Positions 2,185-29,647 of a stretch of 32,000 nt of DNA are shown in pieces; position 1 is the stretch's first letter, and each line of letters starts with the position of its first letter. The notes beneath the pieces are model-generated. The model saw only the letters and a list, made by a program, of their open reading frames with translations. It was not told where the DNA came from and ran no database searches. Made by a program: the position numbers and the translations under genes. Source of the stretch: Candidatus Brocadia sp. (GTDB lineage: Bacteria; Planctomycetota; Brocadiia; Brocadiales; Brocadiaceae). The stretch covers positions 2,760,001 to 2,792,000 of the forward strand of contig CP091279.1 in assembly GCA_021650915.1 (NCBI GenBank). The letters run 5' to 3'.

Positions 2185-4632
2185 TCAACACTTCGTTGAG
2201 CATGATGCTGCAGATGACGGCATCTCGTTGGGGATGAGGTCGCTCACCGTATAGCTCCCCTTGTGACGGTCTGCCAGCTCACCAATCTTGGATTTATTCC
2301 AGTTATTGATGCGGCTGAAATATCCTACGATCCTCGAAATACCATACACATTTTTGGAACCGCAGTGTGCGCAGATATCCGTAAGCCTTTGGGTAACCTT
2401 CTTGCAATCATTGCAAATGGTGAATTCCGGCGAGATCGTCACCTGTGCAGCCTGGGTATTCTTGAAGGTCTTTTTGACCAGATTCATGATGCTGGAGGCC
2501 GGGGGCCGTTCTTCGCCAACAAATGCATGAATAATAGCGCCAGACTCAATCATCGTATGGAACTTGCTCTGGAGGAATATCCTGGTAATCATATCCACCG
2601 GCGCATCCGGACGCAGATGCACGCTGTTGGTGTAGTAGAATTCATCCTTTTCGATATTCCCCTTGACCATCTCCGCTGCTTCCGGATAATTTCTTATATC
2701 AACCTTTGCGAGCCGCCTGCTGGCGCTTTCCGCCGGAGATTCCTCCAGGGAAAACTTCAGCTTATGCTTCCGTCCCGCCTCTTTCACGCGCATATACATG
2801 TGAGAAATGACCCGCAACCCCTGCTTAATCATATCGTCACCTTCATGCAATTCCCTTCCGGTCATAAATTGCAGGCATTCATTCAATCCCAGGATACCCA
2901 CGATGTAGGTCGAGGTTTCCAGGTCGACATAAGGACGTCCGTCCTTTGCCTTCTTGCCGATCTCCCAGAGCGGCATCTCCGGGCTGGCCATTAATTTTGC
3001 GGCAAACGCCTTTTTCTGGAGATGCGCCTTTACGGCAATCTCGATGCCTTTATCGATCTCTTTGTACAGCGCATCCCAATTGCCTCTGCCTGCCCGGTAG
3101 GATGCCTGCGGCAGGTTGATCGTAATATTCTGAAACCCGCAGAAACGCATACTTTCCGGATGCTTGATCATGTAGTTATCGTCTATCGTCGTGCGCAAAC
3201 GGCAGCAGGCCGAGAGGGTAATTTCATCCCGGTCAAAGATAAAATAGGGGACGCCATTCTCACTGGCAATCTGACAAGCATATTCAAGGATTTCATATTG
3301 TTTCGGATCGGTAAGGGTGTCCTCATTAATATGGAAATCACACTTCGGGAAGGCAAAGACGTGACCGTAGCAATCCCCTTCGCGCCATACGTCCAGCATG
3401 GCCAGAGTAAACTGCCGGGCTGCTTCCTCGTACTCCCCATAGGTCTTCCCGGTGGGTTTTCCGCCGGGCCCGATAGCAGGAATATTCCTTAAATATCGCG
3501 GGATACCGGTATGAACGTTAAAATCCAGGAATAAGGTCTGACCGCCACGGGAAAAAGCGCTCTGGGAACAACTGAAGATCAGGTGCTGCGCCTCCTGTTT
3601 CATTTCCGCATAGCTCATCCCTTCCAGATAAGGGGCATACATGATATTGACATACCCTACACCAAGCGCCCCGGCATAATAGGCCTGCATTGATGCCAGG
3701 AAGGTGTTCAGATGTCCCGTCAGGGTGCGCGCATGCTTTGCCGGAGCGGATTCTGTGTCCAGATTCTGGAGCGACAATCCGTACTTCTTCAAATATTCGA
3801 GGGAGTGGGAAGAGCAATACACCCTTGTCGGATAGCCCAGGTCGTGGATGTGCACCATGCCATTCAGGTGGGCGTCCGCCACATCTCTCGAAAACACCTC
3901 CTGAAGGGCAAACTGCTTTAACGTATTTTCAGCAATCGCAAGATTAATTGCCTCCGGGTTATTGGTGGCAATATTGCTGTTCTCCTTGTTCTTTGACATA
4001 ATCAACTCTTCGAGGTCGTACTTCGGCATACCGATCACGGCCTGCTTTTCGAGTTTCTTGTTGTAGCCTCTCTCAAAAAGCTCGTTATCCACCAGTTCGC
4101 GTATCAATGCGGTGGAAATGCGGTTCAATCCGGAAGAAAATACCCGCTGCTCAACAACACCGGCGATTTCGGACGCAACCCCTTCGGGAAGATCCGCCTC
4201 TTTCTCCAGGGCGTCTGCAATCTTCCTCTTGTCCCAGGGAAAGGTTTCATCTTTTGTTTCGGTATCGACCAAAAGGGACACGTCCGTGGTGTCTGCCCGC
4301 TTCTTCGTCTGTTTTCGCACCCGAAGGGATTCACGAATCCTTGCCCTTTTATCACGATACAAAATGTACGCCTTGGCCGTTTTGGCATGCCCCGTCTCAA
4401 TGAGCACCTTCTCTACAATATCCTGTATCTCCTCAATGCTGGGGTTTTGTCCTGCATATTTTTTTTCCAAAAACATGGCAACAACAACCGCCAGTTCATC
4501 TGCCAGGGCCCGGTCTTCACCACCCACCGCCTGTGCCGCCTTGAAAATAGCGTCAGCGATCTTTTTCTCGTTAAAAGCCACCAATCTACCATCGCGTTTT
4601 ACTACGTATTCCACTGCTGTTGTTGTGCTCAT
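2185..4632 (-). CDS. nrdD: anaerobic (class III) ribonucleoside-triphosphate reductase with N-terminal ATP-cone
   Basis: 815-aa ORF. It has an N-terminal ATP-cone-like segment (VVKRDGRLVAFNEKKI), a C-terminal zinc-site cysteine cluster (CNDC...CAHCGS) and the glycyl-radical motif RIVGYFS. Confidence 0.95.
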   Translation of the reverse strand: MSTTTAVEYVVKRDGRLVAFNEKKIADAIFKAAQAVGGEDRALADELAVVVAMFLEKKYAGQNPSIEEIQDIVEKVLIETGHAKTAKAYILYRDKRARIRESLRVRKQTKKRADTTDVSLLVDTETKDETFPWDKRKIADALEKEADLPEGVASEIAGVVEQRVFSSGLNRISTALIRELVDNELFERGYNKKLEKQAVIGMPKYDLEELIMSKNKENSNIATNNPEAINLAIAENTLKQFALQEVFSRDVADAHLNGMVHIHDLGYPTRVYCSSHSLEYLKKYGLSLQNLDTESAPAKHARTLTGHLNTFLASMQAYYAGALGVGYVNIMYAPYLEGMSYAEMKQEAQHLIFSCSQSAFSRGGQTLFLDFNVHTGIPRYLRNIPAIGPGGKPTGKTYGEYEEAARQFTLAMLDVWREGDCYGHVFAFPKCDFHINEDTLTDPKQYEILEYACQIASENGVPYFIFDRDEITLSACCRLRTTIDDNYMIKHPESMRFCGFQNITINLPQASYRAGRGNWDALYKEIDKGIEIAVKAHLQKKAFAAKLMASPEMPLWEIGKKAKDGRPYVDLETSTYIVGILGLNECLQFMTGRELHEGDDMIKQGLRVISHMYMRVKEAGRKHKLKFSLEESPAESASRRLAKVDIRNYPEAAEMVKGNIEKDEFYYTNSVHLRPDAPVDMITRIFLQSKFHTMIESGAIIHAFVGEERPPASSIMNLVKKTFKNTQAAQVTISPEFTICNDCKKVTQRLTDICAHCGSKNVYGISRIVGYFSRINNWNKSKIGELADRHKGSYTVSDLIPNEMPSSAASCSTKC

Positions 4633-4649: not shown

Positions 4650-5159
4650 CTAATGTTGAAGAGATATACTTCGGGAGTCATTACCCCCATCTTTTTTCTT
4701 CTTCTTTTCACCCGTCATTAACGGTTTCAGCTCATCAATAAATTCAGAGATATCCTTGAATTCCCGGTATACCGACGCAAAGCGCACATACGCTACGGCA
4801 TCAAGGATCTTCAATTTCTGCATCACCAGCGACCCGACAAAATTCGTTGTCACCTCACGGTCGAACTGATTGTAAATTTCACGTTCAATTTCATTTACAA
4901 TATTTTCCATGGTATCTGTAGAAACCGGCCTCTTTTCACACGCCTTCTCCAGCCCCTTCAGTATCTTCCGGCGATCGAATGACTCCCGTATTCCATCTTT
5001 CTTGACAACACGCAACGGACTCTCTTCAATCCGTTCATACGTCGTGTACCGGCGGCCGCAACCCAAACACTCCCGCCTTCGCTTAATACTCAGACCATCC
5101 ACCGATGTCCTGGAGTTAATAACTTTATCATTGTCTACCTTACAAAATAAACATTGCAT
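4650..5159 (-). CDS. nrdR: transcriptional repressor NrdR (zinc ribbon + ATP-cone)
   Basis: MQCLFCKVDNDKVINSR...RRRECLGCGRRYTTYERIEE is the canonical NrdR N-terminus. The gene ends 17 nt upstream of nrdD. It has a lysine-rich C-terminal tail. Confidence 0.95.
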   Translation of the reverse strand: MQCLFCKVDNDKVINSRTSVDGLSIKRRRECLGCGRRYTTYERIEESPLRVVKKDGIRESFDRRKILKGLEKACEKRPVSTDTMENIVNEIEREIYNQFDREVTTNFVGSLVMQKLKILDAVAYVRFASVYREFKDISEFIDELKPLMTGEKKKKKDGGNDSRSISLQH

Positions 5160-5216
5160 AAAGTTTTAGAGAAAAATGGTTTCGGAACTGAATAATTTGA
5201 ACGCCATTGCTCAAAA

Positions 5217-5266
5217 ATGCTATATATATAACAGGCAAGAGTATATAATATACAATATATATATGT
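5217..5266 (-). promoter_or_regulatory. candidate NrdR boxes / promoter region of nrdR-nrdD-nrdG
   Basis: There are AT-rich near-palindromes tgCTATATATATAac (about 5219..5233), GTATATAATATAC (5241..5253) and ACAATATATATATGT (5252..5266). They resemble the 16-bp NrdR-box palindrome acaCwAtATaTwgtgt. The outer two centres are about 3 helical turns apart. Confidence 0.4.
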
Positions 5267-5402
5267 CAAACAGATTTTTAAAAACGAGGAAAAATCCCCA
5301 CAATTTAATGGTTTTCGGACTAATACTATCAACAACAAGATCAAGCTATTTTAAACAACATTATCTTTTTTTACACACCGCATGATTATCTATTTCTCTC
5401 TG

Positions 5403-5573
5403 TTATATTTCGCATGCCCTTAATTTTTCCCTGAAGTCCTTTTCCCGGTCATTTAGAACCATGACGGCAAACTCGTTGATCTCCGCGAGCCACTTTAATT
5501 TATCCTCCGTGGATAATTTCATATATTCAATGATTTTCTCGTCTTCAAAAGTATACATAAATCCCTTATCCAT
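5403..5573 (-). CDS. small hypothetical protein (56 aa), translationally coupled to the upstream nucleotidyltransferase
   Basis: Below the ORF-track size cut-off. My translation is MDKGFMYTFEDEKIIEYMKLSTEDKLKWLAEINEFAVMVLNDREKDFREKLRACEI. Its ATG at 5573 overlaps the stop of the upstream gene (ATGGATAA, 8-nt overlap). Confidence 0.5.
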   Translation of the reverse strand: MDKGFMYTFEDEKIIEYMKLSTEDKLKWLAEINEFAVMVLNDREKDFREKLRACEI

Positions 5574-6081
5574 TCCCTTCTCCCAGATATTTTCTTACTT
5601 TATTCAGCATTTCAATATCGCTGAGATCCTGAGGTCTTCCGCTCATTTTTTTCATCTTTATTATATCATCTACCGATGCCAGATAAATGTCTACATCCTT
5701 TGCTCTTTTCACAGTTCTGTTAACAAACGACTCTTCAAAATCCAGCGGGTGAACAAGCACAACGCCAACCACCTTGTAATTGTCTTTTTTATGATAAAAA
5801 CTGAATGCCTTAAGATTTTTATTTTTAATCCAGTCCTTCACGCTATCATAATCTGCAAGGTCGTCAGGGTTTGCAGGCAGGCGAGGGACATAGCCCAATT
5901 CCTTAAACAGAGATGTTGTCTTGAGGACATTTTCTTTGTTCATAGCGATAACGATGTCGATGTCGATGTCCTGAGTCACCCGCGGAACACCATAGAGATT
6001 GACGGACAAACCACCCACAACGAGATATTTGACCTTGCTCCTGTACAAGCCTTCCAGTATATCAAAATAATACATATTCAA
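5566..6081 (-). CDS. minimal nucleotidyltransferase-fold protein (Pol-beta superfamily, DUF-type)
   Basis: The motif VVGGLSVNLYGVPRVTQDIDIDIV matches the G[GS]...D.D signature of minimal NTases. The C-terminal SGRPQDLSDIEML motif is typical of this small-NTase group. The likely true start is the ATG at 6075, preceded by GAGGG. Confidence 0.65.
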   Translation of the reverse strand: MNMYYFDILEGLYRSKVKYLVVGGLSVNLYGVPRVTQDIDIDIVIAMNKENVLKTTSLFKELGYVPRLPANPDDLADYDSVKDWIKNKNLKAFSFYHKKDNYKVVGVVLVHPLDFEESFVNRTVKRAKDVDIYLASVDDIIKMKKMSGRPQDLSDIEMLNKVRKYLGEGNG

Positions 6082-7028: not shown

Positions 7029-8274
7029 ATGGGAGCAACCCTATGCACAGAGAGTATCACAGTAGAATTTGGTTGTCAAATTCGGGTTGAATTAAAGGAC
7101 GGCAGCCTGGAGTCGATTCTCAAGGCATTTTGCAAGATACTGCCGGAGATATTAAGGGATTTTATTCGGAAGATCGTGGTTGGTTTTGGTGAGAGTGCGA
7201 TGGCGCAATCACGGAAGCCATTTTGCTGCGACGAATGTGGGAATGACAAGGAGTTTATCTGGAAGACGAGGCATGGAAAAGAGACGAAGATACTGACGGT
7301 CTTTCAGTGGTTGAGATTAGAGCAGTTGCAGGTGCAGTGCAAGAGGTGCAGTGCAAGGGGTGTGGTCCTAAGATGTATATAACGCGAAAGCTTCTCGGGA
7401 TGGAGCGGATGAAGCGAATACCACCAGAGACGTATCGGAAGCTTGGTCTGGTAGGGTCGTTAACGACCTACCGGGTAGCGAAGAAGATCGTGTCGATGTT
7501 TGGCTGGACCGTAGACAAGATGACGATAGGGAAATCGGTACAAAAGACGGCAGCAGAGATAGATTTTCAACTCGACGAGAAGGGACTTCCCTGGGAAAAG
7601 CAGACGGGACAGGGGTAGGGATTAAGGGGATAGCCAAACGAGGCAAGGAGCTCAAGGTCTTTGTGCAATATAAGAGAGGTGGAGGGGTGAGAGTGGCAGG
7701 GCTTGACATAGGGAATTACAACGGTAGTTGGGATAAGCTTTTTGGTAAGAGTATTAAGGTGTTCAGGAAGTTTTCCCAGTTTCTTTTGATAACCGATGGC
7801 GACACCTCTATTTTGGATAGTTTGAAAGGTAAGATCAAGGTGCTTGTACAGAGATGTTTGTGGCATATTCCGTATCAGGCAAAGTATGTATTGTGGCAAG
7901 ATGGGGTCAAGAGCAAGGGGAAAGAATGGCTGGAGGTGATGTCGGAGCTTATGGAGGTCTGTGCGATACGGCCATTGGTTGATTGCCAGAAGACCATCGA
8001 GAAAATGATAGAGTCCAAGAGGAAACGATTGGGTGCGGTGATTCAGTATTGTTTGTCGAAGGGATATGCTCATACCGCATCCTATCTTGAGAATGCCAGG
8101 CCTGATATGTTTACGGCGATAGAAAAGAGGCTCAATGGCAGAACGACAAGTAAAGTAGAGCGCGTCATGCGTACGGTTAACCTGCGGGTGAATGTGAGCA
8201 AATGGAGTGTTGCCGGGGCGCTGAACGTTACCAAAATTCGGCTTGCCTATTACTACAACGGCTTTGATGCGTGA
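7029..8274 (+). pseudogene. DDE transposase broken into three frames
   Basis: A good RBS (AAGGAGGG) precedes the ATG at 7029. The N-terminus has zinc-finger cysteines (CCDECG...CKGCG). DDE candidates are ADGTGV, ITDGDTS and SKVERVMRTVN. Frame breaks lie at 7331..7358 (14-bp duplication) and about 7570..7615 (1-nt shift). Confidence 0.8.
7331..7358 (+). repeat. 14-bp tandem duplication that frameshifts the transposase
   Basis: GGTGCAGTGCAAGA|GGTGCAGTGCAAGG. Deleting one copy gives the continuous sequence ...LEQLQVQCKGCGPKMYITRKLLGMER... Confidence 0.85.
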
Positions 8275-8332
8275 CAACTATACATTGGAGGACTTTTCTC
8301 AGGTCTCCACTTGACAACGCTACTAAGTATTT

Positions 8333-10466: not shown

Positions 10467-11864
10467 TCATTTGAGATATCTGACAAGTTTTCTGGCAATT
10501 TTTTCCACCATAAGGGGAGGCACGGCATTTCCAATTTGTTTAAAAGCAGCGGTTCTGTTTTGTCCTTCTTTTATGCCCTCAAAATAATAATCATCAGGGA
10601 ATGACTGGAGCCTGGCAGCTTCCCGAACTGAGATTGAACGATTTTGTTCTATATCAGGATGTATGTAATAGTGTCCGTCTTTGGCAATATGTGCTACAAC
10701 TGTTTGTGAATACGGCATGTTATCAGCTACAACCTTAAATCTGTCAAGGAAAGCATCCCTGTTTTCATGAGTTTTAAGTGTTTCAGGAAGGTCATTATAG
10801 TTGAGCCTTTCCCTTTCCCTTTCTCTTTCCCATTTTTCAACTACAATTCTGTAAATTTCCTTATCCTGTTCTGTGTGTGGCCTTGTGACGTGCTGTGTCA
10901 GGACATCAATACCATTTCGTAACACTTTAGCTTTTTGAAAAACTCTCAATTTTATACCATATTTTGTTAAAAAACCGAATTATTAGGGCGATTTTTGGCC
11001 CTTTTTAAGCGATATTTCGACATTTTTTGGCAGTTTTTCAAAAAGCTAAATTGATACACCATTTCTTATTTTTGTGAAATACAGATAATCGTTAATTTCT
11101 GCGGTATAGGTAAGATATTTGTCTCTGCCTCCTCCTGCAAGTAATTTTGGCAAATCTTTGAAAATTGATTCTACTTTATATTCGAAGATGCATTGGTCAG
11201 TCAGATTGTCAATAGGAGGATTCAAGCCTTTCTTCCATCCTATGATTATTATCCTCCTCCTATTCTGAAGTACTCCGAATTCATTCGCGTTTATCTTCAA
11301 TGGTTCAACAACATATCCAAGACGTCTGAAATATGCCTGGATATTCTTGAAATGCTTCCCTTTTTCCGCTGATAATAAACCGATCACATTTTCAAAAACA
11401 AACATCTTTGGATTATACTTCTTCAGAAACCTTCCATACTGGACGTATAGATAATTTCTTGTGTCCTCCTGCATTCCATTCTTGTCACGCGCCCTGCCGA
11501 CCAGGGAATATGCCTGGCATGGAGGTCCACCCGCTATAATATCAATATTTTTTTTACCATTCAGTCTTTCTATTATCTGGAAGATATTAGGGTTATTTTC
11601 GTTACCGATTGACAGATTGATTACAGATTCCAGAATATGGGAGGGAACGGCAGAATAAAGCTGATCTCTGCCAATTTCTCCTTTAAGGTATTTGATGTAA
11701 ATATCTAATTTGTTATTTTCTCTGAGATAATAATAGGAAAGCCTTGTTTTTAAAGTAAAACACGCAGCGGGATCTGCCTCAATAAATGCAATGGGCTCAA
11801 AACCGGCCCTTTTAAAACCTTCTGCAAAACCGCCTGCCCCTGCAAATAAATCAATAAATCTCAT
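10467..11864 (-). pseudogene. dcm: DNA (cytosine-5)-methyltransferase, split by a MITE
   Basis: The N-terminal part has motif I (DLFAGAGGF), motif IV (GGPPCQAYS) and ENV. The C-terminal part has RSISVREAARLQSFPDDY and GNAVPP. Precise removal of 10919..11057 plus one TSD gives ...YLYFTKIRNGIDVLTQHVTRPH... in frame (about 416 aa). Confidence 0.9.
10919..11057. mobile_element. 139-bp non-autonomous element (MITE) inserted in dcm
   Basis: The 26-bp terminal inverted repeats are GTAACACTTTAGCTTTTTGAAAAACT and, reverse-complemented, GTATCAATTTAGCTTTTTGAAAAACT (24/26). The 8-bp target-site duplication ACCATTTC is at 10911..10918 and 11058..11065. It has no coding capacity. Confidence 0.85.
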
Positions 11865-12277
11865 TTTGTTAATCTCGCTGCTAACTGATTCAGGGTTTTT
11901 TCCCTATTCCCAGTTCTTAATTTGCACTCAAACACCGTTAAGATTTTCCAACCCAGTTTTTTAAACTTCCTGAAGTTCTCGGCATCAAGCTGCTTATTCC
12001 GGCTAATCTTTTCAAGCCACCATTTTGTCCGTGTTTTTGGCACTACAAAATATTTGCAGCCCTCATGTCCATGCCAGAAACAGCCGTGAACAAATATAAC
12101 TGTTTTATATTTTGGAAAAACAAGGTCTGGCTTACCAGGCAACATTTTATCATGGAGTTTATACCTAAATCCATTTCCAAAAAGAAATTTTCTGACGATA
12201 ATTTCAGGTTTTGTGTTCCTGCTCCGGATCATGGACATGTTATAACTTCTGGTTTTCTTATTGTGAACGTCTGCCAT
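11861..12277 (-). CDS. vsr: very short patch repair endonuclease
   Basis: The 138-aa ORF reads ...RSRNTKPEIIVRKFLFGNGFRYKL...VIFVHGCFWHGH..., which is the Vsr signature. Its stop overlaps the dcm start by 4 nt (ATGA). Confidence 0.9.
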   Translation of the reverse strand: MADVHNKKTRSYNMSMIRSRNTKPEIIVRKFLFGNGFRYKLHDKMLPGKPDLVFPKYKTVIFVHGCFWHGHEGCKYFVVPKTRTKWWLEKISRNKQLDAENFRKFKKLGWKILTVFECKLRTGNREKTLNQLAARLTK

Positions 12278-23267: not shown

Positions 23268-23346
<79 letters not shown>

Positions 23347-24757: not shown

Positions 24758-25039
24758 TTATGAATTCCCACCGGCAATGGCAGGTACGATAGAGATATGA
24801 TCGCCATCCTTGACCGGCGTATTGAGGTTGCCCATAAATCTTATATCTTCGTCGTTGAGGTAAAAATTGATAAACCTTCGTATCTGCCCGTCGTTGTCAC
24901 AGATCCTTTCCTTAATTCCCTTATAGGTTGCTTCAAGATTGTCGACGATATCTTTAATATTCTTCCCTTCCGCCTTTACCTCGTCGGCGCCTTTGGTAAG
25001 GGTTCTCAGTGGGGTCGGAATGCGTACCGTTACTGCCAT
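24758..25039 (-). CDS. MoaD/ThiS-family sulfur-carrier protein (C-terminus ...AIAGG-NS)
   Basis: It is 93 aa, beta-grasp-like, ending ...DGDHISIVPAIAGGNS. It lies 70 nt downstream of the ThrC-like gene. Confidence 0.75.
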   Translation of the reverse strand: MAVTVRIPTPLRTLTKGADEVKAEGKNIKDIVDNLEATYKGIKERICDNDGQIRRFINFYLNDEDIRFMGNLNTPVKDGDHISIVPAIAGGNS

Positions 25040-25109
25040 GCTTATACTCCCTTCAGATGTTCATGTTGGATTGTTACTGGTTTGAGGCAATGCCTCGTCA
25101 AATAATTCA

Positions 25110-26360
25110 CTACCCTTTTTGTGCTACAGCCACTTTCTTGTTCATAATGGCGTCAAATTCAGCGAGGGAAGGATTGATAATCTTTGGCGCTTCTAATTTA
25201 TCCAGAACGGCCTCCTGCGTCTTCAGTCCATTGCCCGTTACGCTGATGACGATGGATTCGTCGTGCGGGATTTTGCCCTGTTCGATAAGTTTTTTGGTAA
25301 CCGCAACCGTGACTCCCCCTGCGGTTTCCGTAAAGATACCCTCCGTCCGGGCGAGTAATTTAATGCCTTCCACGAGTTCGTCATCGGTGACATCCTCCGC
25401 CCAACCCCCGGATACGTTAATGGACTTCACTGAATAATAGCCATCCGCAGGGTTGCCGATAGCTATTGACTGCGCGATGGTCTTTGGCTTTACGGGTTTT
25501 ATCACATCGGTTTCCTGTTTGACGGCAGTGGTTATCGGTGCGCTGCCGCTTGCCTGGGCTCCGTGGAGTTTCGTGTCCGCCTCATCAATAAGCCCCAGTT
25601 TTACGAATTCTTTTATGGCCTTTTCTATCTTCGTTATCAGAGAACCTCCTGCCATAGGAACGATGATATGTTTCGGCACTTTCCAGCCCAGCTGCTCCAT
25701 GATTTCGTATCCATAGGTTTTTGAGCCTTCTCCGTAGTAGGGTCTCAGATTCACATTTACGATTGCCCAGCCGTATTTGTCCGCAATCTCTGAGCACAGT
25801 TTGTTTACGTTATCATAGTTTCCCTTGACTTTTATCACGTTCGTGCCGTAGATCAGCGTGCCAACAATCTTTCCCTGTTCAAGATCGGCCGGCATGATGA
25901 TGTAGCTTTCCAGGCATGCCTGCACGGCCTGGGCTGCGACCGAGTTCCCCAGATTTCCTGTCGTGGCGCATCCAACCGTTTTATACCCGAACTCCTTCGC
26001 CTTTGTTAGCGCAGTAGAAACAACGCGATCCTTAAAGGAGAACGTGGGATAATTTACTGAATCATTCTTCACGTACAGTTCCCTGACCCCAAGGACTTTA
26101 GCAAGATTATTTGCCCTGACGAGTGGTGTAAAACCGACCTGAGCGCCCACGGTAGGTTCGCCGTCAACCGGAAGTAATTCCTGGTACCGCCACATGGTTT
26201 TACCGCGCGATTCGATCAGTTTCCTAGTCAAAACCTTCTTAATCCCTTCGTAATCATAATCAACCTCCAGCGGACCAAAACAAAAGCTGCAGACATGCAG
26301 GGGCTCTTTCGGATACGGTTTCCCGCACTCCCGGCACTTTAGACCATTTACAAATCCCAT
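25110..26360 (-). CDS. thrC: threonine synthase-family PLP enzyme with N-terminal zinc ribbon (context suggests a MetM-like homocysteine-forming role)
   Basis: The 416-aa ORF has an N-terminal CRECG...CSFCFGPLEV ribbon, a PLP-lysine region TFSFKDR and a glycine-rich loop PMAGGSL. A GGAGG sequence sits 6 nt upstream of the ATG. Confidence 0.8.
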   Translation of the reverse strand: MGFVNGLKCRECGKPYPKEPLHVCSFCFGPLEVDYDYEGIKKVLTRKLIESRGKTMWRYQELLPVDGEPTVGAQVGFTPLVRANNLAKVLGVRELYVKNDSVNYPTFSFKDRVVSTALTKAKEFGYKTVGCATTGNLGNSVAAQAVQACLESYIIMPADLEQGKIVGTLIYGTNVIKVKGNYDNVNKLCSEIADKYGWAIVNVNLRPYYGEGSKTYGYEIMEQLGWKVPKHIIVPMAGGSLITKIEKAIKEFVKLGLIDEADTKLHGAQASGSAPITTAVKQETDVIKPVKPKTIAQSIAIGNPADGYYSVKSINVSGGWAEDVTDDELVEGIKLLARTEGIFTETAGGVTVAVTKKLIEQGKIPHDESIVISVTGNGLKTQEAVLDKLEAPKIINPSLAEFDAIMNKKVAVAQKG

Positions 26361-26502
26361 CTATCGCCTCCATCCTATAATATCAAATTCAAGGTTCTTC
26401 CTGACTTACGGTGATTTAGCAGTTGGTGGTTAAAAGCCTGTGGAAAAGCGGGACACGTAGGTTTCTGTTGCTGCTTTTTTTACCCAAGTTTTCTGAAGAA
26501 CC

Positions 26503-26546
26503 AAATAAAAAAGCCTCTTTCTATATACATAAGATAGGAAGAGGCC
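26503..26546 (-). terminator. intrinsic terminator = expression platform of the SAM riboswitch
   Basis: The minus strand reads GCCTCTTCCTAT-...-ATAGAAAGAGGC followed by TTTTTTATTT. The upstream AAGATAAGATAGG can pair alternatively with CCTATCTTAT as an antiterminator and shares bases with the P1 3' strand. Confidence 0.75.
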
Positions 26547-26560
26547 TTTTTATTCACCTA

Positions 26561-26682
26561 TCTTATCTTTCCCCAAAACACGAGACAGGAATTAGCACCA
26601 GCATCCTGCCCACCCTATTAGCTGGACAAGACCGGTTGCTGTGGCTTCGCAGGGCCAGTCCCTCTGCCACTCTCGATAAGAC
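26561..26682 (-). promoter_or_regulatory. SAM-I (S-box) riboswitch aptamer
   Basis: The minus strand reads CTTATCGAGAGTGGCAGAGGGACTGGCCCTGCGAAGCCACAGCAACC...GGTGCTAATTCC...AGATAAGA. This matches the conserved S-box blocks CUUAUC.AGAG.GG..GAGGGA.UGGCCC..GAA.CC..GCAACC...GGUGCUAAUUCC...AGAUAAG. Confidence 0.9.
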
Positions 26683-26696
26683 AAAAATTTAATCGA

Positions 26697-26725
26697 ATTG
26701 TAACGATAAATCAGAAAGTTGTCAA
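26697..26725 (-). promoter_or_regulatory. sigma-70-type promoter driving the riboswitch-thrC-moaD transcript
   Basis: The minus strand has TTGACA (26725..26720), a 17-nt spacer and TACAAT (26702..26697), about 15 nt upstream of the P1 helix. Confidence 0.65.
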
Positions 26726-26837: not shown

Positions 26838-27914
26838 TTAGCAATAGCGAATGACGCGCGTTCTGCCGTATTCCTTTCCATCCCGGTCAACCTTCACTAC
26901 CCCCAGCCGAATGGTCGTAACCTTATGAATCTCTTCAACAGGGGTAAAGAGGGTTAGTTTGCCGGCAAAAGGGTCGGTATCAGCGATGGTGCCAAGTCCC
27001 AGGGTACAATTGTTGTCGTCGTTGAGACCCACCAGAAGGTCTTTCAATCCATCTCTTTCAATAAGTATGACTGATGCAACACCAAAGGATTCTTTCAACG
27101 GGGAAACCGGTATTAATGCATCTGCAGCGTCTGCTATGATTAAAAGTTCGTTGCCGCATTTTTCCAGGTATGGGCGGTTTGGGGCGTGTATGCAGAGCTT
27201 ATTTGGCAATACTGATGGATCGATCCTTTCTCCGGTGCCGAGAATGCAGGAGGGAAACACCACCCGATGGAGGGAACAATCGGTAAGTCGGGCATGTTTA
27301 AAATAGGCCTTGTATTTTTCAGTCCGGTATTTCTGTCGCTCAGCCTGCGAGCGGGCAGCCACGTGTTCTGAGCAGGTCAGCCGTATAACCTGCCAGCCCA
27401 TCTTCTCGTATCCTTTCAACAGATGCTCCATCTCATCTCCTGCCTGCAATGCAAGAATCCATTGCGGGCGGAGCATTTCTATCTTATGCTGCTTCAGGAT
27501 ACGGGCAACAGGCCCGTCAATAAAGCCTGCCGTGTCTATGAGGGTGATTTCTGCGCCTTGTTGCCGGGATTTGTCAGCCATCATTTTTACCGCATGGAGT
27601 GTCTGCACCAAAAACCCGTCAGGCGCGGTATTGCCTACAAACTGAAGATACGGAGGATTTGCATCATTACGGGGATGATGAGGGGTATCATAAATTTTTA
27701 AACTGACCGTGGTTGGGAAGCCTATGGTAGATTGCCCCAGATCGCTATCGACATATCCGACCCGCACCCTGGAAGCCGTCCATGTCTGGATCAAATACTT
27801 ACAGAGGGTGCTCTTGCCGCTATCGGTCCTGCCGAGAATAATGCCTGTTTTTGCGCCGTGCTTTATCTCCTCTGCCACGCGTCGCCATTCCCTTGGGACA
27901 ATGATCGTGTTCAT
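26838..27914 (-). CDS. Clp1/Grc3/Nol9-family P-loop polynucleotide 5'-kinase homologue
   Basis: GIILGRTDSGKSTLCKYLIQ...VGYVDSDLGQSTIGFPTTVSL...ITLIDTAGFIDG parallels the Clp1 Walker A, D.D.GQ and Walker B blocks. Its ATG shares a base with the recJ stop (TAATG). Confidence 0.7.
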   Translation of the reverse strand: MNTIIVPREWRRVAEEIKHGAKTGIILGRTDSGKSTLCKYLIQTWTASRVRVGYVDSDLGQSTIGFPTTVSLKIYDTPHHPRNDANPPYLQFVGNTAPDGFLVQTLHAVKMMADKSRQQGAEITLIDTAGFIDGPVARILKQHKIEMLRPQWILALQAGDEMEHLLKGYEKMGWQVIRLTCSEHVAARSQAERQKYRTEKYKAYFKHARLTDCSLHRVVFPSCILGTGERIDPSVLPNKLCIHAPNRPYLEKCGNELLIIADAADALIPVSPLKESFGVASVILIERDGLKDLLVGLNDDNNCTLGLGTIADTDPFAGKLTLFTPVEEIHKVTTIRLGVVKVDRDGKEYGRTRVIRYC

Positions 27915-29647
27915 TATTCATCATCAAATTTCAGATCTTTCACCTCCAGCTCAAGCTGCTCACCGTTCATCCAGGTATTTATTTTTACGGTAAAGGCAAG
28001 GGAGCACATCCTTCCGTTTTGTTTCAGCCGGTCGATCTGTTCTCCCATCCCAAAGGCAACAGCCCGGACGGCAACGTCTCCCTGTTTGACATAGAAAGTC
28101 AGGTGTTGTCCTTTTGTGCCAATACGGCGTGGCTGTCCAACGATCTTTGCGTTTGTGACGGCAAATAAGGGGATGGGATTTCCCTCGCCGTGGGGGGAGA
28201 GACGCGCCAGTTCAGCTACTACAGCCTTTGATAAGAGGGAGAGCGCGATTTCTGCATCAATGTTCAGTACGCGCACCAGGTCCGTCTTACAAAGTCTTTG
28301 GGCGGTAGTTCTGTTGAGCATGTCGCGAAATTCGTCAATATTATGCGGGTGTATCTTTAGCCCTGCCGCCTGGGCATGACCACCCACGGAAAGCAAGGTA
28401 TCCCTGCAACTCTCTAACGCCTCCAGGATATGGAATGAGGGGATGGAGCGCGCAGAACCGCGTCCGATATCGTCCGCTACGGCAATCATCACCGTGGGGC
28501 GGTTAAATTCTTCTACTATTTTCGAGGCAATAATTCCAATAATCCCGGGGTGCCAGGCGTGGTCTGCCAGTACGATCGCGGTAGTTTCATCCAGATTTAA
28601 TTCATGTAATACCTTTTTCCGCGCCGATGCCATGATATCAACCTGCATTTCCTGTCTTCGCTTATTCTCCTGCTCCAGAAAATTGGCAATTTCTGTAGCC
28701 CGCTCCTTGCAGGGTGTTGTCAACAGTTCAACAACGATTCCCGCATTTCCTATGCGTCCTGGGGCATTTAATCGGGGGCCCAAGCGATATCCCACGTGAA
28801 AGGCGTCAAGGTTGGTCCGGGAAAGATCAGCTACATCGAGAAGCGCGCGCAATCCGGGGATTTCGGTGTGTTGTAATGCGCTCAGACCGTATTTTGTGAT
28901 GATACGGTTTTCACCCACCAGCGGCACCACGTCCGCAATGGTCCCCAGGGCGACCAGCCCTACCGCGCTTAACAGAAAATCCTTGAAGTCAGGAGACACC
29001 TTCTTTTGCGGTGAAAAAAGCTGTCCGATGGCCCATGCCAGTTTAAACGCGATACCCACACCGGAGAGATCACGGAAAAGATGATGGGATGCATGCAATT
29101 TAGGGTTAATTACGGCGAAGGCGCCGGGTATTTCCTGCCCGGGCCGATGGTGGTCGGTAATGATCAGGTCGATGCCGCAGGCGCGTGCGATATCGGCTTC
29201 CCGGCAGGCGTTGATACCGCAATCAACCGTCAGGATAACGTTTGCTCCTTCCTCCCGCAGTTTTTGAATTGCATCAGCATTTAAACCGTATCCCTCCTCC
29301 AGTCGCTCTGGAATATAATAACTCACTTGTGCCCTCAGCAATTTCAGGCATCGATACATGAGAGCGGTAGCTGACAGACCGTCAACATCATAGTCGCCAT
29401 AGATGACAATTCTCTCTCCTCTCCGTATGGCCTCGTTGATACGGATGGATGCCTTTTCAATGTCAGGGAGAAGTGAAGGGTCTCCAAGTGACGCGATTTG
29501 TGGCTGAAGGAAACTTCTGGCGGATGCAACATCAACAATTCCGCGATTGACAAGCACCTGGGCTAATAAGGGCGATATCTTAAGCTTGCTGGCAATCTCC
29601 GTCTGGAGTGGCCTGTTCGGGGGGGAAAAAACCCACCTTTTTATCAT
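27914..29647 (-). CDS. recJ: single-stranded-DNA-specific exonuclease RecJ
   Basis: The 577-aa ORF has DHH-family motifs (IYGDYDVDGLSA, VDCG, ITDHH) and a DHHA1 region (GGHAQAAG). Confidence 0.95.
   Translation of the reverse strand: MIKRWVFSPPNRPLQTEIASKLKISPLLAQVLVNRGIVDVASARSFLQPQIASLGDPSLLPDIEKASIRINEAIRRGERIVIYGDYDVDGLSATALMYRCLKLLRAQVSYYIPERLEEGYGLNADAIQKLREEGANVILTVDCGINACREADIARACGIDLIITDHHRPGQEIPGAFAVINPKLHASHHLFRDLSGVGIAFKLAWAIGQLFSPQKKVSPDFKDFLLSAVGLVALGTIADVVPLVGENRIITKYGLSALQHTEIPGLRALLDVADLSRTNLDAFHVGYRLGPRLNAPGRIGNAGIVVELLTTPCKERATEIANFLEQENKRRQEMQVDIMASARKKVLHELNLDETTAIVLADHAWHPGIIGIIASKIVEEFNRPTVMIAVADDIGRGSARSIPSFHILEALESCRDTLLSVGGHAQAAGLKIHPHNIDEFRDMLNRTTAQRLCKTDLVRVLNIDAEIALSLLSKAVVAELARLSPHGEGNPIPLFAVTNAKIVGQPRRIGTKGQHLTFYVKQGDVAVRAVAFGMGEQIDRLKQNGRMCSLAFTVKINTWMNGEQLELEVKDLKFDDE

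Follow-up and report, generated by a model that had tools for sequence, protein, structure and literature searches.

We report here a two-gene operon on the minus strand of a 32,000-nucleotide (nt) stretch of Candidatus Brocadia sp. DNA (contig CP091279.1, positions 2,760,001 to 2,792,000 of the forward strand; hereafter the window). Judging from comparisons of sequence and gene context, it is very probably a metM-metO operon for homocysteine synthesis that is repressed by S-adenosylmethionine (SAM), the activity of its products being predicted. It comprises a riboswitch leader, a gene of the threonine synthase (ThrC) family of pyridoxal 5'-phosphate (PLP) enzymes and a gene for a small sulfur carrier. 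Its elements, in the order of transcription, are the following:

26697..26725, minus strand: sigma-70-like promoter, with the -35 box TTGACA at 26720-26725, a 17-nt spacer and the -10 box TACAAT at 26697-26702
26560..26682, minus strand: SAM-I (S-box) riboswitch aptamer, a four-way junction of helices P1-P4 (Rfam RF00162)
26557..26566, minus strand: 5' strand of the antiterminator, AUAAGAUAGG, overlapping the 3' strand of P1 (the P1 strand plus three bases)
26529..26538, minus strand: 3' strand of the antiterminator, CCUAUCUUAU, within the upper part of the terminator hairpin
about 26503..26556, minus strand: intrinsic terminator, a hairpin of 17+4 bp followed by U6AUUU, with arms at 26538-26551 and 26507-26520
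26367..26371, minus strand: Shine-Dalgarno sequence GGAGG of the metM-like gene
25110..26360, minus strand: metM-like gene, encoding a 416-aa ThrC-family PLP enzyme with an N-terminal Cys4 zinc ribbon, predicted to be an O-phosphohomoserine-dependent homocysteine synthase
25047..25053, minus strand: Shine-Dalgarno sequence AAGGGAG of the metO-like gene
24758..25039, minus strand: metO-like gene, encoding a 93-aa CysO-type ThiS/MoaD sulfur carrier (PF02597, E 1e-15)

The leader carries a complete regulatory device. Its promoter agrees with the consensus at 11 of 12 positions and is the only match with one mismatch or fewer in the window, where 0.13 would be expected, and its position puts the transcription start about 8 nt ahead of helix P1. 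The aptamer scores 80.7 bits with RF00162, against a gathering threshold of 44.4 (E 1e-17), over positions 1-108 of the 108 in the model; it is the only riboswitch found in the window with Rfam, and the consensus fold of four orthologous leaders, from four taxa, consists of four helices. Downstream, AUAAGAUAGG and CCUAUCUUAU are exactly complementary and make up a 10-bp antiterminator, which is the minimum-energy fold of the nascent transcript as long as the 3' arm of the terminator has not been made (duplex energies of -12.2 kcal/mol for the antiterminator vs -10.2 kcal/mol for P1). The terminator folds with -24.1 kcal/mol (z -2.7). A simple terminator scan of the window did not report it, because the hairpin loop and stem exceed the limits of the scan; folding shows the hairpin clearly. 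These three elements (a near-consensus promoter, a canonical S-box aptamer and a terminator/antiterminator pair) had been proposed in a first-pass annotation of this DNA, which named the covariance-model scan as the check on the aptamer, and all of them were recovered.

The leader is thus classed as a SAM-I riboswitch with an alternative helix that competes with P1, and a response to SAM is predicted for it. It shares with the S-box attenuation leaders of Bacillota the architecture of the aptamer and the mutually exclusive P1, antiterminator and terminator. It differs from them in its phylum, in the gene regulated, and in having the 3' strand of the antiterminator in the upper terminator hairpin rather than across the whole 5' arm. 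Both parts of this expression platform are kept in Jettenia, in Scalindua and in a second Brocadiaceae genome, and the same terminator/antiterminator design is also kept in several non-anammox phyla.

The 416-aa enzyme has a counterpart with 99% identity in Candidatus Brocadia sp. UTAMX2 and is named "threonine synthase" in every database source. It has a PALP domain (E 3e-68) and scores 287 bits with the thrC model TIGR00260 (cut-off 167). Its best relatives in the PDB are true ThrC (6cgq, 2zsj, 1uim and 2d1f; E 1e-46 to 1e-55, about 190 bits at best), none of which aligns with its N-terminal 55 residues or so, where the Cys4 ribbon lies. With canonical ThrC it has in common the PLP fold, the catalytic-lysine motif SFKDR, which aligns, and probably the substrate; it departs from it in sequence identity, in its motifs, in the added ribbon and in its genomic partners. 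In a neighbour-joining tree with a CysK outgroup and four true ThrC, all of the 86 window-like proteins included form one clade, which takes in cyanobacterial members and one from the actinomycete Nonomuraea (51% identity), with ThrC outside, a placement that the first-pass annotation had put forward as a test. The window enzyme is 51-93% identical to members of the clade and 35-38% identical to true ThrC. Two active-site motifs separate the groups: the clade has P[TS][LFWYH]S[FY]KDRV where ThrC has PTGSFKDRG, and [ST]TGNL[AG], in 86 of 86, where ThrC has STGNTS. The corresponding stretches of the window enzyme read PTFSFKDRV and TTGNLG, so that the canonical ThrC motifs are absent from it. 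The altered loops, which we take to be those holding the PLP lysine and the substrate phosphate in solved ThrC, would with these substitutions fit a changed reaction outcome. These comparisons show the enzyme to be a ThrC paralogue distinct from true threonine synthase. A search of a representative library supplied further diverse relatives for the alignment, one of them identified as belonging to the Micromonosporaceae.

Two other ways of characterizing the enzyme were set aside. The N-terminal zinc ribbon does not serve as a MetM-specific marker, since NF006050, an NCBIfam model for threonine synthase, aligns across it too, as do haloarchaeal thrC, and the enzyme is not a cysteate synthase (64.6 bits with TIGR03844, cut-off 324.9). 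The haloarchaeal genes, carried by megaplasmids (in Haloarcula, Natrinema, Haloterrigena and others), show 32-36% identity to the MetM-like query and align from the N-terminal ribbon onward; they may be a third ThrC-family lineage with a zinc ribbon.

The carrier gene starts 70 nt after the enzyme gene. The nearest solved structures of its product are 4n6e_B (3.7e-25) and M. tuberculosis CysO, 3dwg_C (3.1e-24), both matched end-to-end, and the protein is assigned to the ThiS/MoaD family, which implies a beta-grasp fold, with CysO-type carriers as its nearest relatives. Its C-terminus reads ...PAIAGG-NS, two residues beyond Gly-Gly. The first-pass annotation had described a 'threonine synthase' gene next to a 93-aa beta-grasp protein ending in GG; both genes stand, and the ending has to be corrected to GGNS. 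Such tails occur in all four anammox carriers (NS, NIN, NYRF and TAASGNDRYLI), and therefore trimming would be required before activation. Across the carrier loci surveyed below, 43 carriers stop at GG, 25 run 1-10 residues beyond it and nine have longer C-terminal extensions or fusions.

The pairing of the two genes is widespread. The survey covered 85 loci, namely the window, four loci found through individual homologues and the best 80 of a genome scan. In 76 of them, over more than 12 phyla, the enzyme gene is followed on its own strand by the gene of a carrier homologue, mostly at a distance of less than 200 nt; in nine loci there is no carrier gene near the enzyme gene. The hosts belong to the Brocadiales and other Planctomycetota, Verrucomicrobiota (including Methylacidiphilales), Acidobacteriota, Chloroflexota, Thermodesulfobacteriota, Nitrospirota, Nitrospinota, Cyanobacteriota, Methylomirabilota, Omnitrophota, Binatota, Actinomycetota, Bacillota and Aquificota. 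The neighbouring genes, classed by clustering of open reading frames (ORFs) together with Pfam annotation, encode a NIL-domain protein (40 loci), a ThiF-type E1 (25), a CysK/M-like enzyme (about 21), a JAMM protease (13), a cysteine desulfurase (6), an aspartate kinase (6), a sulfite-reductase-like protein (5), CysH (5), an Rrf2 regulator (5) and TusA (4). Carriers fused to NIL occur in several loci and a carrier fused to ThiF in one, L037, from an uncultured Actinomycetota. This locus has the carrier-ThiF (E1) gene at 7235-8302, downstream, and a ThiS-PALP (CysK/M-like) gene at 4834-5952, upstream of the MetM-like gene, and it appears to serve cysteine and homocysteine synthesis alike through thiocarboxylates.

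The NIL domain (PF09383) is found either directly downstream of the carrier gene, for instance as a free-standing gene in L043 (7536-7820), or fused to the C-terminus of the carrier (L012, L013, L014, L025 and L030). No NIL-domain gene is present in the anammox loci. The domain also occurs in MetN, the ATPase of the methionine transporter, and in the NIL-ferredoxin homocysteine system of methanogens. A NIL-domain protein is not among the components of the MetM/MetO pathway in GapMind (bioRxiv 10.1101/2024.10.14.618325).

In three Nitrospirota loci a true thrC lies less than 1 kb downstream of the MetM-like/carrier pair (L023, 7856-8947; L027, 1974-3101; L039, 2168-3268), so that these clusters hold both users of O-phosphohomoserine together, and the two ThrC-family genes are therefore distinct paralogues. 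The second gene of L023 scores 508 bits to Aquifex ThrC, vs 190 bits for the window enzyme, to which its product is 36% identical over the PLP domain. A second copy is also known closer to the window, in the sister genome Brocadia UTAMX1, which has two expressed "threonine synthase" genes (PMC5460018, Supplementary Data 3). One of them, UTAMX1_398, is 1337 bp long and adjoins htpX, a length and a context unlike those of the window gene (PMC5460018, supplement).

Control by SAM recurs as well. Rfam places a SAM-I aptamer immediately ahead of the enzyme gene, itself followed by the carrier gene, in three further genomes: that of Jettenia at 85 bits, that of Scalindua at 75 bits and that of a deltaproteobacterium at 91 bits. 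A covariance model that we built from these three leaders and that of the window detects the aptamer in 37 of the 85 loci, each match preceding the enzyme gene in the same orientation: 4/4 in Brocadiales, 11/13 in other Planctomycetota, 10/13 in Verrucomicrobiota, 5/8 in Acidobacteriota and 3/5 in Chloroflexota. None was found in the Cyanobacteria, Nitrospirota and Nitrospinota of the set, and other SAM riboswitch classes were absent (Rfam) from the 11 SAM-I-negative loci scanned for them. In Jettenia the operon comes immediately after metK, ahcY and a DUF1015 gene, giving the order metK-ahcY-DUF1015-[SAM-I]-metM-metO. The DUF1015 gene ends just upstream of the riboswitch both there (L003, 8125-9435) and in Scalindua (L005, 8322-9689), and in Brocadia a Clp1-like gene occupies this place.

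Among actinomycetes, Nonomuraea gerenzanensis has a SAM-I aptamer (68.7 bits) ahead of two genes whose products share 51% (enzyme) and 52% (carrier) identity with those of the window. It was the only actinomycete in a tblastn search of PLSDB, where the remaining matches were haloarchaeal thrC. Streptomyces is absent from the best 80 loci of the genome scan, and a homologue search with the Nonomuraea protein gave 120 Streptosporangiaceae clusters and none from Streptomyces. Overall, the separate clade, the pairing with a CysO-like carrier, the recurrent SAM-I aptamer, the sulfur-activation neighbours and the second thrC of the sister genome favour the proposal of the first-pass annotation that the operon would serve a homocysteine rather than a threonine route.

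In the mechanism that we propose, transcription would start at the near-consensus promoter. At low SAM the 3' strand of P1 would pair with CCUAUCUUAU as the antiterminator and RNA polymerase would read into both genes; at high SAM the aptamer would lock P1, and the terminator hairpin and U-tract would form and stop transcription about 140 nt before the start codon. The steps that follow, from the trimming and thiocarboxylation of the carrier to gamma-replacement on O-phosphohomoserine and the release of homocysteine, we infer by analogy, modelling them on Streptomyces MetM/MetO and mycobacterial CysM/CysO/Mec. A JAMM protease would first cut the carrier back to Gly-Gly, after which a ThiF/MoeZ-type E1 would adenylate and thiocarboxylate it; the genes of both enzymes would lie elsewhere in the genome. 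The ThrC-like enzyme would bind O-phosphohomoserine and eliminate phosphate, and sulfur from the carrier thiocarboxylate would be added at the gamma carbon, instead of water at the beta carbon. Hydrolysis of the carrier-homocysteine adduct would then release homocysteine, which would pass to methionine synthase, and threonine would be made by a separate true thrC.

The operon is best filed with the MetM/MetO kind. In Streptomyces albulus, according to bioRxiv 10.1101/2024.10.14.618325, MetM makes homocysteine from O-phosphohomoserine and the thiocarboxylate of MetO (Hasebe et al., 2024, Appl Environ Microbiol 90:e01247-24), MoeZ acting as sulfur ligase and Mec as hydrolase; the same source describes MetM as a threonine synthase homologue that is commonly misannotated as threonine synthase. 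The first-pass annotation had pointed to such a ThrC-like/MoaD-like pair in Streptomyces, as this source and PMC12172450 bear out. It knew of no report of S-box control of the pair, but PMC12172450, on the authority of Hasebe et al. (2024), gives S. albulus metM an upstream SAM riboswitch, so that this control is already in the literature, and Nonomuraea has the same layout. The window operon resembles S. albulus MetM/MetO in its ThrC-homologous PLP enzyme with a small ThiS/MoaD-type carrier, in the SAM riboswitch upstream, in the misannotation as threonine synthase, and in that an E1 (MoeZ) and a JAMM hydrolase (Mec) are expected. It differs in that its host is an anaerobic chemolithoautotrophic planctomycete and in that it has no E1 or JAMM gene close by. 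Nonomuraea has a carrier that ends at GG, unlike that of the window with its two-residue tail, and its expression platform differs too: in place of the intrinsic terminator of the window operon, only 14 nt separate the aptamer from the start codon, an arrangement suggestive of control at translation.

Two more distant systems are comparable. Like M. tuberculosis CysM/CysO/Mec+/MoeZ (3dwg) and the Amycolatopsis carrier complex (4n6e), the pair would bring together a PLP enzyme of fold-type II, an O-phospho amino acid and a thiocarboxylated carrier protein; these systems provide the nearest solved carriers, and in other phyla CysK/M-like genes are frequent neighbours of the pair. Unlike CysM, the window enzyme is a ThrC paralogue under SAM control, and its expected substrate, by homology, is O-phosphohomoserine rather than O-phosphoserine. 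Krishnamoorthy and Begley reportedly described in 2011 a Wolinella succinogenes system (HcyS/HcyD/HcyF/MetY) in which the sulfur of homocysteine comes from a ThiS-like protein thiocarboxylate; HcyS reportedly carries one additional residue at its C-terminus, cleaved off by a JAMM protease, and the GG-NS tail of the window carrier parallels this. The acceptor there is reportedly O-acetylhomoserine, unlike that expected here, and the enzyme a MetY-type fold-type I sulfhydrylase.

Several points weigh against the assignment to MetM/MetO and against the regulation proposed. The thermodynamic fold of the full leader favours the terminator even without P1, and therefore switching must be kinetic, as in classical S-box leaders. 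No SAM riboswitch is detectable in 48 of the 85 loci. Neither an E1 nor a JAMM gene turned up in the window or in the 10 kb flanking each side of the other anammox loci that were scanned, so that both would have to be encoded elsewhere in the genome; the ThiF and JAMM genes counted above as neighbours of the pair belong to loci of other phyla. The orthology with MetM is argued through an actinomycete proxy and through identities published by others. A cyanobacterial homologue has given a mixed picture: in Microcystis the products of the thrC/metO pair share 51.6% and 47% identity, respectively, with MetM and MetO of S. albulus, and the enzyme showed threonine synthase and threonine deaminase activities in vitro, with no clear MetM function in vivo (PMC12172450), so that the family may be promiscuous. 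Finally, O-phosphohomoserine is required as the substrate, but of the two reactions that convert homoserine into threonine a single one was found in UTAMX1 (PMC5460018, Supplementary Data 3), which leaves no annotated homoserine kinase there. Anammox bacteria may use a non-canonical kinase, such as one of the HomK/ThrB2 type (GapMind 2026), on which ThrC and the MetM-like enzyme would both depend.

The main rival to the MetM/MetO assignment is a sulfide-dependent variant, in which the enzyme would be an O-phosphohomoserine sulfhydrylase using free sulfide and the carrier would be dispensable or serve another purpose, with homocysteine as the product and repression by SAM left unchanged. We regard it as unlikely, although sulfide is available where anammox bacteria and many of the other hosts live, some loci have a small sulfite-reductase-like gene and TusA with no obvious E1, and the nine loci without a nearby carrier gene would fit it. 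Na2S has been tried with the Microcystis homologue, and only an unidentified peak was obtained (PMC12172450). What decides against this variant is the conservation of the carrier beside the enzyme in so many loci and phyla, which implies functional coupling, together with the carrier-ThiF fusion and the co-occurrence of JAMM proteases; moreover, the Streptomyces enzyme is described as MetO-thiocarboxylate-dependent in bioRxiv 10.1101/2024.10.14.618325.

We give still less credit to an ordinary threonine synthase placed behind a SAM riboswitch, for example to balance the flux at the O-phosphohomoserine branch point, with the small protein as a MoaD of the molybdopterin type. The TIGR00260 score above the cut-off and the uniform database names would agree with it, and so would the threonine synthase activity of the Microcystis homologue in vitro (PMC12172450), but the clade excludes true ThrC and has changed active-site motifs, and true thrC co-occurs with the MetM-like gene, even side by side, with two copies in the sister Brocadia genome. 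The nearest solved structures of the carrier are of the CysO type, and no moaE adjoins the carrier gene. Besides, shutting down threonine synthesis at high SAM contradicts the logic of the branch point; in plants, SAM activates threonine synthase.

Equally improbable is that the pair makes some other sulfur compound (cysteine from O-phosphoserine as in CysM/CysO, cysteate or a specialised metabolite), to which the CysO proteins of cysteine synthesis as best structural relatives of the carrier, the CysK/M-like genes clustered with the pair and a weak TIGR03844 match might point, but that match falls far below its cut-off, the cysteine synthase-like genes, where present, are separate from the ThrC-like enzyme gene, which is therefore not in that role, the regulator senses SAM, the end product of the methionine branch, and the Jettenia operon adjoins metK and ahcY.

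None of the genes flanking the operon has a link to sulfur metabolism: on one side lie a Clp1-like P-loop gene and recJ, on the other a Ca2+/H+ exchanger gene and tRNA-Pro. The same locus is present in two Brocadia assemblies. The flanking features are:

26838-27914, minus strand: Clp1/Grc3-type polynucleotide-kinase P-loop protein of 358 aa (PF16575, E 8e-39), of the eukaryote/archaea type
27914-29647, minus strand: recJ
23268-23345, plus strand: tRNA-Pro (CGG), between the gene of a 742-aa propeller-repeat protein and the Ca2+/H+ exchanger gene

The start of the Clp1-like gene overlaps the stop of recJ, and the two are therefore probably co-transcribed, a pairing unusual for a bacterium. Elsewhere in the window there are an anaerobic ribonucleotide reductase NrdD with two ATP-cone stretches and a radical-SAM activase gene (1180-1926 and 2185-4632, both on the minus strand), and a C-5 cytosine DNA methyltransferase gene (11046-11864, minus strand) that overlaps the 3' end of an unannotated ORF of 138 aa (11861-12277).

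The operon bears on a gap in what is known of anammox metabolism. In UTAMX1 no reactions were found for homocysteine biosynthesis or for methionine biosynthesis I/II, although methionine synthase is present, and Lawson et al. (2017) left the methionine of anammox bacteria as "Met(?)" (PMC5460018). Later papers took anammox bacteria to be unable to make methionine and to be supplied with it by symbionts (PMC11460484, PMC9909701). The first-pass annotation knew of no report of the pair in this kind of anaerobe, and we found no paper in the searchable literature that links anammox bacteria or Kuenenia to MetM/MetO, O-phosphohomoserine or a thiocarboxylate. The SAM-regulated MetM/MetO pair of Brocadia, Jettenia and Scalindua offers a concrete and testable explanation for the missing methionine pathway and argues against taking the methionine gap as evidence of cross-feeding. 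The dependence of anammox bacteria on their partners for methionine is probably an artefact of annotation. We lean, with little more than even confidence, towards a wider view in which metM-metO would be the sole anammox route to homocysteine, so that these bacteria would be methionine prototrophs and their cross-feeding such an artefact, and in which the NIL protein may be an undescribed third component of the system.

Anammox bacteria are responsible for much of the loss of fixed nitrogen and are employed in treating wastewater, and the pair reaches well beyond them, to nitrite oxidisers, methanotrophic Verrucomicrobiota, Acidobacteriota and cyanobacteria among its more than 12 phyla. Every named database entry that we saw says "threonine synthase", and automated predictions of auxotrophy are therefore likely wrong for many lineages; [ST]TGNL together with KDRV would provide simple markers to separate the paralogue from true ThrC.

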